Below are positions 52,349 through 53,844 of a DNA stretch of 64,000 nt, one piece after another; the first letter of the stretch is position 1; the number at the start of each line of letters is the position of its first letter. This stretch comes from Acutalibacteraceae bacterium (GTDB taxonomy: Bacteria; Bacillota; Clostridia; Oscillospirales; Acutalibacteraceae). The notes under the pieces are model-generated. The model worked only from the letters and a program-made list of their open reading frames with translations. It ran no database searches and was not told the DNA's origin. The position numbers and the translations under genes are program-made. The DNA lies in contig JAZSLR010000074.1 in assembly GCA_045535475.1 (NCBI GenBank), positions 3,989 through 67,988 on the forward strand, in the 5' to 3' direction.

Positions 52349-52440
52349 AAAGTCTTTTTTAATGAACAGTAATACAGCTTGCGACGGATAAAGCGGAAAT
52401 TAAACATTGTTTTAAGCTTTAATAATTGCCTGACGGCAAT

Positions 52441-52484
52441 CACCTCATCCGTCGCTATGCGACACCTTCCCCTCAAGGGGAAGG
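52441..52484 (+). repeat. REP-like double-hairpin repeat, left copy
   Basis: CACCTCATCC-GTCGC.TAT.GCGAC-A-CCTTCCCC.TCAA.GGGGAAGG. Confidence 0.85.
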
Positions 52485-52505
52485 CTTAACATAAGGACTG
52501 ATTTT

Positions 52506-52883
52506 ATGAATACAGCACACAACAAAAAATTAACCCGCAATTCACAGACGTTACGAAAAAATATGACCAAAGAAGAAAGACACCTATGGTATGATTTTCT
52601 CAAAGAAATTCCGGTCACATTTCATCGTCAGAAAGTGATTGACAATTATATTGTTGACTTTTATTGTGCAAGTGCAAAGCTTGTTATTGAGCTTGACGGA
52701 ACACAGCATTATCTTGACAAAGGAAAATCAAAAGATAAAATAAGAGACACTTTTTTATCGTCAAAAGGACTTACCGTTTTGAGATATTCAAACGATGATG
52801 TTAATAATGAATTTGAAAGTGTATGCCAAGATATATTCAACAACCTTGTTCAAAAATGCGTTATCCCCTCACCTTCTCCTTGA
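52506..52883 (+). CDS. DUF559 / Vsr-like endonuclease domain protein
   Basis: LRKNMT.EE..LW, F.RQ..I..YIVDFYC...KLVIELDG.QH, D..RD..L...G..VLRY.N. Confidence 0.9.
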   Translation: MNTAHNKKLTRNSQTLRKNMTKEERHLWYDFLKEIPVTFHRQKVIDNYIVDFYCASAKLVIELDGTQHYLDKGKSKDKIRDTFLSSKGLTVLRYSNDDVNNEFESVCQDIFNNLVQKCVIPSPSP

Positions 52884-52916
52884 GGAGAAGGTGTCACCGC
52901 AGTGACGGATGAGGTG
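52872..52916 (-). repeat. REP-like double-hairpin repeat, right (inverted) copy
   Basis: Reverse complement CACCTCATCC-GTCAC.TGCG.GTGAC-A-CCTTCTCC.TCAA.GGAGAAGG; overlaps the DUF559 stop codon. Confidence 0.85.
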
Positions 52917-52936
52917 TGCAAAAGGAGAAATTATAT

Positions 52937-53497
52937 ATGAATATTTATAAATCTTGTCCTCAATTTGAGAATGAGCGTTTTTTACTGCGCTATGTTTCAG
53001 AAAATGATTGTTCGGACTTATTAAAGGTTTATTCCGACGTGGATTCTGTACCGTTTTTCAACAGCGACAACTGCGGCGGAGATGATTTTTATTACACAAG
53101 CGAAGAAAGAATGCTTGAAGCAATTAAATATTGGTTTTTTGAATATGAGAGAAAAGGATTTGTTCGTTGGTCAATCATTGATAAGACTTCCAATGAAGCA
53201 ATCGGCACAATCGAACTTTTCCACAGGAAAGCTAAAGATTATTTCACAAAATGCGGCTTGTTGAGATTGGATTTGAGAAGCGATTATGAAAGTAAAGATA
53301 AGATTATAAATATTTTATCGCCAATTCTTGCTCCAACTTTCAAGCTGTTTCATTGCAATAAAATTGCAACAAAAGCAATACCCGAAGCAAAAGAAAGAAT
53401 CTCCGCTTTAAGCAAACTCGGTTTTGCTCTGTCAGATGAAAAATTAATCGGACATGACGAAACGGAATACTCATCATATTTTGTACTTCACAAATAA
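52937..53497 (+). CDS. GNAT family N-acetyltransferase (RimJ/RimL-like)
   Basis: FENERFLLR, RWSIIDK...IGTIELF, LRLDLRSDYE; AT-rich; ATG 52937 behind AAGGAG. Confidence 0.75.
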   Translation: MNIYKSCPQFENERFLLRYVSENDCSDLLKVYSDVDSVPFFNSDNCGGDDFYYTSEERMLEAIKYWFFEYERKGFVRWSIIDKTSNEAIGTIELFHRKAKDYFTKCGLLRLDLRSDYESKDKIINILSPILAPTFKLFHCNKIATKAIPEAKERISALSKLGFALSDEKLIGHDETEYSSYFVLHK

Positions 53498-53513
53498 TTT
53501 GTAGGGCATATAC

Positions 53514-53545
53514 AAAAAGACCACAGTCGATTGACTGTGGTCTTT
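53514..53545. terminator. Terminator of the rplU-prp-rpmA operon, probably bidirectional
   Basis: AAAGACCACAGTC-GATT-GACTGTGGTCTTT. Confidence 0.8.
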
Positions 53546-53559
53546 ATCATTTTCAGTAA

Positions 53560-53844
53560 TTACTGCTCAACAGCGTAAACGCTTACCTTCTTGCGGTCCT
53601 TACCCATACGCTCAAACTTAACTGTTCCGTCGATGAGTGCGAAGAGAGTGTCATCTGAACCTCTGCCGACGTTGTTGCCGGGATGGATGTGAGTACCTCT
53701 CTGCTTTACAAGGATGTTACCTGCAAGAACAAACTGACCGTCAGCCCTCTTAGCGCCGAGTCTCTTTGACTCTGAATCACGGCCGTTACGGGTTGAACCC
53801 ATACCTTTCTTATGAGCGAAAAGCTGTACATTTATCTTAAGCAT
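53560..53844 (-). CDS. rpmA: 50S ribosomal protein L27 with Prp-cleaved N-terminal extension
   Basis: MLKINVQLF|[19 protein letters not shown]. Confidence 0.97.

Follow-up and report, generated by a model that had tools for sequence, protein, structure and literature searches.

What connects a small nuclease-like gene to the structured repeats that enclose it? The question is raised by a locus in a 64,000-nucleotide stretch of DNA from an Acutalibacteraceae bacterium (hereafter, the window), whose genome (G000; 2.57 Mb, 86% complete) carries a DUF559 gene framed by two inverted repeats downstream of uvrA. A preliminary description of this DNA had proposed a minimal element of ~475 bp in which the nuclease spreads its own palindromes. 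Here, the parts of the locus, the predicted fold of the repeats, their linkage to DUF559 genes and the variation of the insertion sites are considered in turn.

The DUF559 unit downstream of uvrA

The gene order is uvrA, the DUF559 unit, a GNAT acetyltransferase gene and then rpmA on the other strand. The DUF559 open reading frame (52506-52883, plus strand; 125 aa) is the sole one between a left repeat (52441-52484; plus strand, that is, with the C-rich strand on plus) and an inverted right repeat (52872-52916; minus strand, with the G-rich strand on plus). The left repeat is built of a 10-nt leader, a GTCGC.TAT.GCGAC hairpin, a single A and a second hairpin, CCTTCCCC.TCAA.GGGGAAGG. The right repeat differs from it by one compensatory G-C to A-T swap in each hairpin, and blastn between the repeat copies of this genome gives an E-value of 1.5e-5. 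In Rfam, no family came near its gathering score for the window repeat. The last residues of the protein and its TGA stop codon (52881-52883) are encoded by the right repeat, the stop being located in the repeat's loop. A likely ribosome-binding site, AAGGA, is predicted from the sequence between the left repeat and the start codon (52493-52497, plus strand), and the spacer is kept in G093, G055, G146 and G096. An accessory hairpin, ATTGCC.TGAC.GGCAAT (52425-52440, without strand), abuts the left repeat and is a recurring repeat-adjacent element, as it is present with another loop before the left repeat of an 87%-identical gene at a different locus (G096), and also after a repeat in G093.

The preliminary description was accurate regarding the inverted two-hairpin repeats around a single AT-rich gene, the compensatory stem swaps, the stop codon supplied by the right repeat and the extra hairpin at the left end. 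Indeed, GC content is 33% over the DUF559 gene vs 46-49% in uvrA; the GNAT gene is equally AT-rich. It had located the unit between uvrA and rpmA, which needs correction: the GNAT gene (52937-53497, plus strand; Pfam Acetyltransf_3) follows, so that the site is uvrA-GNAT, with GNAT as context and no fixed part of the unit. Upstream of the accessory hairpin, 12 of 15 letters match an inverted-repeat end by eye (52381-52395, minus strand). This possible decayed remnant of an outer repeat weakly suggests a former left doublet; doublets are found upstream of close homologs in G096, G069 and G063.

The protein matches Pfam DUF559 (PF04480) over the whole domain (E-value 4e-32; 110.7 bits vs a cut-off of 20.6). 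It scores 74.5 against the YcjD equivalog, whose cut-off is 218, and is therefore a member of the DUF559 family and not a YcjD ortholog. It consists of a single domain, without a separate DNA-binding domain, and a Pfam scan of it returned neither a GIY-YIG nor a Y1 HUH domain. No variation was seen at the putative catalytic residues D51, E62, D64, H68 and D77 among 13 sequences of four phyla, and the window protein retains all of them. An AlphaFold model was obtained from a 9-sequence alignment (pLDDT 76), a single-sequence model (pLDDT 45) being set aside. Its best Foldseek matches are the catalytic domain of I-Bth0305I (3r3p; TM 0.63 by query, 30% identity) and NGO0050 of N. gonorrhoeae (3hrl), with Vsr further down. 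In the first of these alignments, D51 corresponds to D196 and D77 to D222 of I-Bth0305I, H68 being one column off H213. Together, the modelled fold and the conserved, aligned catalytic residues make it likely that the window protein is a putative active nuclease with a Vsr fold. The EDxHD homing endonucleases, represented by I-Bth0305I (PMC3239194), and Vsr are accordingly similar to it in being its best structural match, with an aligned catalytic Asp/His/Asp. In contrast to them, the window protein has no N-terminal NUMOD domain, lies in no intron or intein, has no adjacent partner methyltransferase and is flanked by dispersed repeats.

A predicted third strand in the repeats

The G-rich strand of each repeat reads as a pyrimidine (Y) arm, a loop, a purine arm, a hairpin and then a G/A/T tract. 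In the right repeat, these correspond to the Y arm (52872-52879), the loop (52880-52883), the purine arm GGAGAAGG (52884-52891), the hairpin loop (52892-52906) and the predicted third strand GGATGAGG (52907-52914). On the minus strand, the left repeat presents a Y arm, a loop, the purine arm GGGGAAGG, a 14-nt loop with the hairpin and the predicted third strand GGATGAGG. Following an antiparallel G-G/A-A/T-A rule, the tract agrees with the purine arm in 8/8 triads in the right copy and 7/8 in the left one. By these rules, the repeat is predicted to fit a purine-motif intrastrand triplex of the BoxC/PIT/TM class with a hairpin inserted in loop 2, and the 10-nt leader would be the third strand of that triplex, more than a conserved tag. 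The preliminary description had argued for a selected structure in part from the invariance of leader and loop, and had missed the fit to a purine-motif DNA triplex of this known class. The supposedly invariant TCAA loop is found in 98 of 114 unique copies across the family, the remainder being TCGA (11), TTAA (3) and TCCA (2).

BoxC/PIT/TM repeats have been known since the 1990s. As described for BoxC/PIT/TMECO (PMC4666352), the repeats studied here present the class II order of Y arm, loop, R arm, loop and third strand, with G-G-C, A-A-T and T-A-T triads, and they are intergenic, multicopy and often arranged in inverted pairs. Both window repeats also have the stem of the class II triplex motif (6-15, with at most one mismatch). 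They differ from BoxC/PIT/TMECO in their stem sequence and in loop 2, which is 14-15 nt long here (with a hairpin of 13-40 nt across the family), outside the 1-6 nt of the ITxF definition, so that an ITxF search would miss them. A 3-nt loop on an almost identical stem is found beside the DUF559 gene of a further genome in the phylum (L128). The triplex was found by CD and NMR in TMECO oligonucleotides and was absent in duplex DNA, with no protection in vivo (Holder et al., 2015; PMC4666352). No partner enzyme is identified in the available text of that study, from which the words "nuclease" and "ycj" are absent; according to its authors, no mobility gene is located near the motifs, and the mechanism and origin of these are left unanswered. 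The study also states that purine-motif triplexes cannot form in RNA and, therefore, the selected object is probably single-stranded DNA.

For the family as a whole, only geometry was used to place the third strand in 532 units of 149 loci, resulting in 339 unique arm/third-strand pairs, many of which are wrong-strand or chance units. Seven of seven matches were obtained in 69 of the 339 pairs, compared to 11.7 in shuffled sets (maximum of 21 in 1000). Strict mirror (34) and direct-repeat (14) pairing also exceeded their shuffles and were rejected for a poorer fit than the purine-motif rule (69). When only G positions were used to set the register, A was faced by A or T in 48/52 positions, and by T in 16/52. 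The 13 arm types each match their own third strand, the G positions doing so by construction, and full matches among non-cognate combinations amount to 0/156. At the sequence level, the predicted third strand and the purine arm thus co-vary across the 13 arm types.

Linkage of DUF559 genes to repeat types

Homologs of the window protein are present in 58 of the 132 genomes of the genus, with 88 matches, of which the best 77 were examined, leaving out the 11 weakest or partial ones. Linkage was counted as a motif within about 300 bp, excluding loci with less than 250 bp of flank. A triplex motif is found near 67 of the 71 genus loci so retained, on both sides in 35 of them. From GTDB we obtained 80 further close homologs, mostly from Clostridia and at least one of which (L161) duplicates a genus locus; among the 68 having full flanks, 63 are accompanied by the motif (41 on both sides). 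All six distant loci (E. coli, Synechocystis, Deinococcus, Sinorhizobium, Azospirillum and Photobacterium) present it as well. In contrast, equal windows taken 1 kb away contain the motif in 0/25 and 3/57 cases (3/82), weak or fused Pfam matches to DUF559 in 1/24, and the Y1 transposase loci of four genomes in 0/10. The specific pairing of DUF559 with the repeats that the preliminary description anticipated is therefore upheld, and no RAYT/Y1 transposase that could rival the nuclease shares the repeat in those ten loci. Against this specificity, one of three small GIY-YIG loci carries the motif; strong DUF559 matches at the phylum level carry it in 3/5 only. A small GIY-YIG gene near a triplex-type repeat (L297, contig C4 of G101) belongs to a repeat-rich genome where no DUF559 was found. 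A full-length frame is missing, due to a frameshift or stop, in four of the 77 best genus genes (L061 in G146, L088 in G098, L103 in G139 and L119 in G129), the repeats being kept.

The E. coli homolog, located between sapF and fabI, is ycjD (PMC12817139). Its reading frame ends in a degenerate repeat copy, which gives it a stop codon and, as in the window protein, a terminal SPSP; a TTA-loop motif similar to TM type A lies about 200 bp downstream. Together with triplex-type repeats (L121), ycjD fills the slot that, in other phylogroups of E. coli, is taken by the efflux operon eefRABCD (PMC12817139), and these repeats may bear on the repeated loss of eefRABCD. At a BREX locus (PglX methyltransferase) of a Synechocystis plasmid (L122), gene pieces lie on either side of a DUF559 gene with triplex-type repeats.

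The repeat type follows the phylogeny of the nuclease. In a tree of 73 genus proteins, from which four broken ORFs were left out, the 21 nucleases flanked by the window's repeat type all form one clade (21/21; support 100/99), and the six repeat labels require 9 changes vs 44.9 when shuffled. An eight-member clade labelled "none" carries a further, sixth repeat type. Two or three nucleases coexist in 16 genomes, mostly from different clades and with different repeats, and the match therefore tracks the enzyme and not the host. The window's genome itself has a second DUF559 gene (C104:5882-6545), about 50% identical to the first and with a different repeat type of the same architecture, present in about 10 copies in the genome. 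This second gene is inserted among L-fucose utilisation-like genes.

The full pattern of the window-type repeat has 294 matches in 50 of the 132 genus genomes (reversed control, 0), where it occurs in 1-26 copies per genome, intergenic and with many doublets. In the window's genome, one further solo copy of this type is present (C66), and a structure-based detector made 15 calls in 2.57 Mb, 13 of which are true repeats by inspection. The repeats lie at the 3' ends of genes, a T run sometimes terminating the free copies; no promoter excess was found. Five or more copies are present in 13 of the 22 genomes with the window's nuclease clade vs 5 of the 110 others, noting that these counts include the flanking copies and that related genomes are not independent. 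Against a nuclease-driven spread, the repeat is nevertheless present in 28 of the 110 genomes lacking this clade. G005 (26 copies, 89% complete) and G101 (18 copies, 95% complete) also speak against it, with many repeats and no DUF559 match, as does G022, whose 10 copies are found with a nuclease of another clade only.

Several arrangements of the repeats were also observed. The aroB gene of G063 (L053) ends inside a repeat, and single copies appear within longer reading frames on C94 of G003 (L045) and C200 of G015 (L044). Tandem repeats with a 453-bp period are present in G041 (C18:329048-329997), and composite, BIME-like arrays mix the repeats with other palindromic families on C16 of G005 (L315) and C24 of G116 (L311 and L321). 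An apparent bias towards mixed-type doublets (29/37 in a hand count of listed rows) was dropped after a scripted locus sample gave 8/18, for an expected fraction of 0.47.

Locus variation and competing explanations

Homologs with 66-87% identity are found after uvrA (G000, G093, G055, G146 and G041), between aroB and aroA (G063, G124, G145 and G126) and after a leucine-rich-repeat gene (G096 and G069); in G000, the aroB-aroA junction is empty, with overlapping genes. The GNAT gene is present in 9/132 genus genomes, always after uvrA, with or without repeat and nuclease. In these nine genomes, the uvrA junction is empty in two, has a solo right repeat in three (G085, G063 and G068) and displays the full arrangement in four. 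The solo repeat of G068 has TGAAA (5 nt) on both sides, in A-rich DNA. In G134 (L272), the uvrA stop is followed by a 34-nt scar in which the left leader and half-hairpin run directly into the right half-hairpin and leader, with loss of the nuclease and of both long hairpins. Full alleles do not cluster on the uvrA tree (4 changes for 4 genomes), a weak tree in which 4 of 28 branches are starred. Gain and loss of the unit at uvrA both occur, and the G134 scar and the solo repeats show that loss explains part of its patchy distribution.

The gap between uvrA and rpmA (window 52349-53559; L031-L036 and L237-L274) is a variable cargo slot across the genus, containing nothing, a 105-bp palindromic insert (G024), lipoprotein-like genes, GNAT or a small gene. 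The ends of the unit, which the preliminary description expected to read from empty uvrA-rpmA sites, are therefore not definable with such varied cargo. Contig 28 of a public run (X5; matching window 52434-52922 and 53513-53632) carries the element at 98% identity, followed in the place of GNAT by some 0.8 kb of different sequence and then by a further repeat copy ahead of the rpmA terminator.

The idea of a ~475-bp minimal transposon with defined inverted ends, moved as a unit by the DUF559 protein, agrees with the order of repeat, gene and inverted repeat kept in G000, G055, G146, G063, G124 and G041, and with the left end and accessory hairpin common to G000 and G096 at different loci. Nevertheless, the nearest flanking repeats display all four orientations (13, 11, 8 and 2 of 34) at varying distances, an intact right repeat is missing from G096 and G069, and doublets occur in others. 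Identity reaches 81% at most in 24 within-genome nuclease pairs, with no near-identical copies. The comparison of empty and filled alleles revealed no shared ends and no clear target duplication, and the aroB-aroA junctions of G063 and G126 differ at the same site, without a clear duplication. The varied orientations, the differing junctions and the absence of near-identical copies therefore speak against a fixed-end transposon or membership in an IS family, and this original proposal, largely refuted, now appears very improbable.

Our observations establish the gene-repeat linkage, the clade match, the triplex sequence rules, the relocation of the gene and the absence of fixed ends. From these we infer in vivo folding, together with binding, cleavage and a cleavage-driven spread, in the explanation that we favor and judge somewhat more probable than not: DUF559 would recognise the folded form of its cognate repeat and nick next to it, with host recombination then spreading the repeats and, now and then, the gene. 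The repeat would fold as a purine-motif triplex with an extra hairpin on transiently single-stranded DNA, the DUF559 enzyme would recognise the fold of its cognate repeat and nick adjacent DNA, and host repair would copy repeats, sometimes with the gene, to gene junctions. To our knowledge, a hydrolytic nuclease has no strand-joining chemistry, unlike the strand transfer of HUH enzymes, and the spread would therefore need host repair.

Alternatively, DUF559 could be a domesticated enzyme that reads its cognate fold in order to clear fork-blocking triplexes, restrict incoming ssDNA or regulate itself via its flanks, while the repeats multiply otherwise. About one gene per repeat type in each genome, with no recent duplicates, and the existence of repeat-rich genomes devoid of DUF559 would be in line with such a role, as would two published observations: SsnA modulates transformation and does not transpose (PMC11893778), and TM motifs stop polymerase in vitro (PMC4666352). 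We regard it as rather unlikely, given that the gene occupies at least three loci within the 66-87% identity clade, that its presence at uvrA is unclustered on the weakly resolved uvrA tree (4 changes, 4 genomes) and that high repeat counts are enriched in nuclease carriers. Less likely still, DUF559 would be a passenger caught in variable slots, with the repeats spread by another factor or acting as RNA hairpins at gene ends. The clade-specific match even within one genome, a linkage reaching E. coli, cyanobacteria, Deinococcus and Alphaproteobacteria, and the nearly empty controls are difficult to reconcile with a passenger, and T opposite A in 16/52 positions fits a purine motif on the G-rich strand, impossible in RNA according to Holder et al. 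(PMC4666352). In favor of a passenger, the uvrA-rpmA gap takes many kinds of cargo, repeats lie at gene 3' ends with free copies that can end in a T run, and the X5 contig has the element, other cargo and then a further repeat copy.

Under the favored explanation, in which the nuclease nicks beside its cognate repeat, the locus would by analogy work like Ssn/NTS and RAYT/REP, its nuclease fold being a third one and a triplex taking the place of the plain hairpin. Ssn, the closest functional precedent and one that the preliminary description had missed, is likewise encoded by a small gene for a single-domain nuclease, with clade-specific structured repeats of its own (Chenal et al., 2025; PMC11893778) on one side in 71% and on both in 42% of cases, vs 94% and 49% for DUF559 in the genus. 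In contrast, Ssn has a GIY-YIG fold (cd10448) with a single hairpin, instead of a Vsr/DUF559 fold with hairpin and third strand, and its site-specific cleavage has been demonstrated, whereas that of DUF559 is a prediction; "Vsr" occurs 0 times in the available text of that study. RAYT/REP (TnpA-REP) systems with their REPs, REPINs and BIMEs (e.g. PMC3733652 and PMC11893778) also have roughly one enzyme gene per repeat type and inverted flanking repeats, with further free copies dispersed near gene ends, singly or as doublets. Unlike them, DUF559 has no HUH/Y1 domain, and its repeat lacks a constant GTAG or CGTC tag at the end, the leader being followed by variable bases (CCGTC, CAGTC, CACCG and CCACC).

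DUF559 likely represents the partner that has been missing for the BoxC-type repeats, themselves unexplained. More tentatively, and in our estimation somewhat short of probable, standalone DUF559/YcjD proteins in general could be triplex-reading nucleases with their own triad code in each clade, which mobilise BoxC/PIT/TM repeats from gut Clostridia to E. coli as a third system beside RAYT/REP and Ssn/NTS. In the text consulted, two Geobacter genome papers (PMC2996986 and PMC2700814) mention no endonuclease beside their repeats, and our literature search, with subscription literature mostly and supplements entirely outside its scope, found no paper linking DUF559 to these repeats. If DUF559 is the cognate nuclease, the question of the BoxC/PIT/TM mechanism becomes directly testable with ycjD of E. 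coli K-12 and at least 13 natural arm/third-strand codes. It would also provide a function for DUF559, covariation evidence that selection acts on a DNA triplex in bacteria and, perhaps, new tools in the form of structure-specific ssDNA nucleases.

Regarding additional sequence data, metagenome-contig joints that skip the gene were rejected, as they have 21-23 letters per side only and are probably doublets from other loci. One public run (X1) contains a close strain with the same arrangement. Its contig 1 is otherwise about 97% identical and has eight substitutions clustered within a 34-nt stretch that borders the right repeat on its inner side (window 52838-52871), where the variant resembles G093, which suggests a local mosaic patch in sequence. 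Finally, the G000 assembly contains two copies of a segment that spans the end (3') of a glycoside hydrolase-like gene and the region downstream of it (C134:14500 and C78:1-161), which may represent a paralog or contamination.
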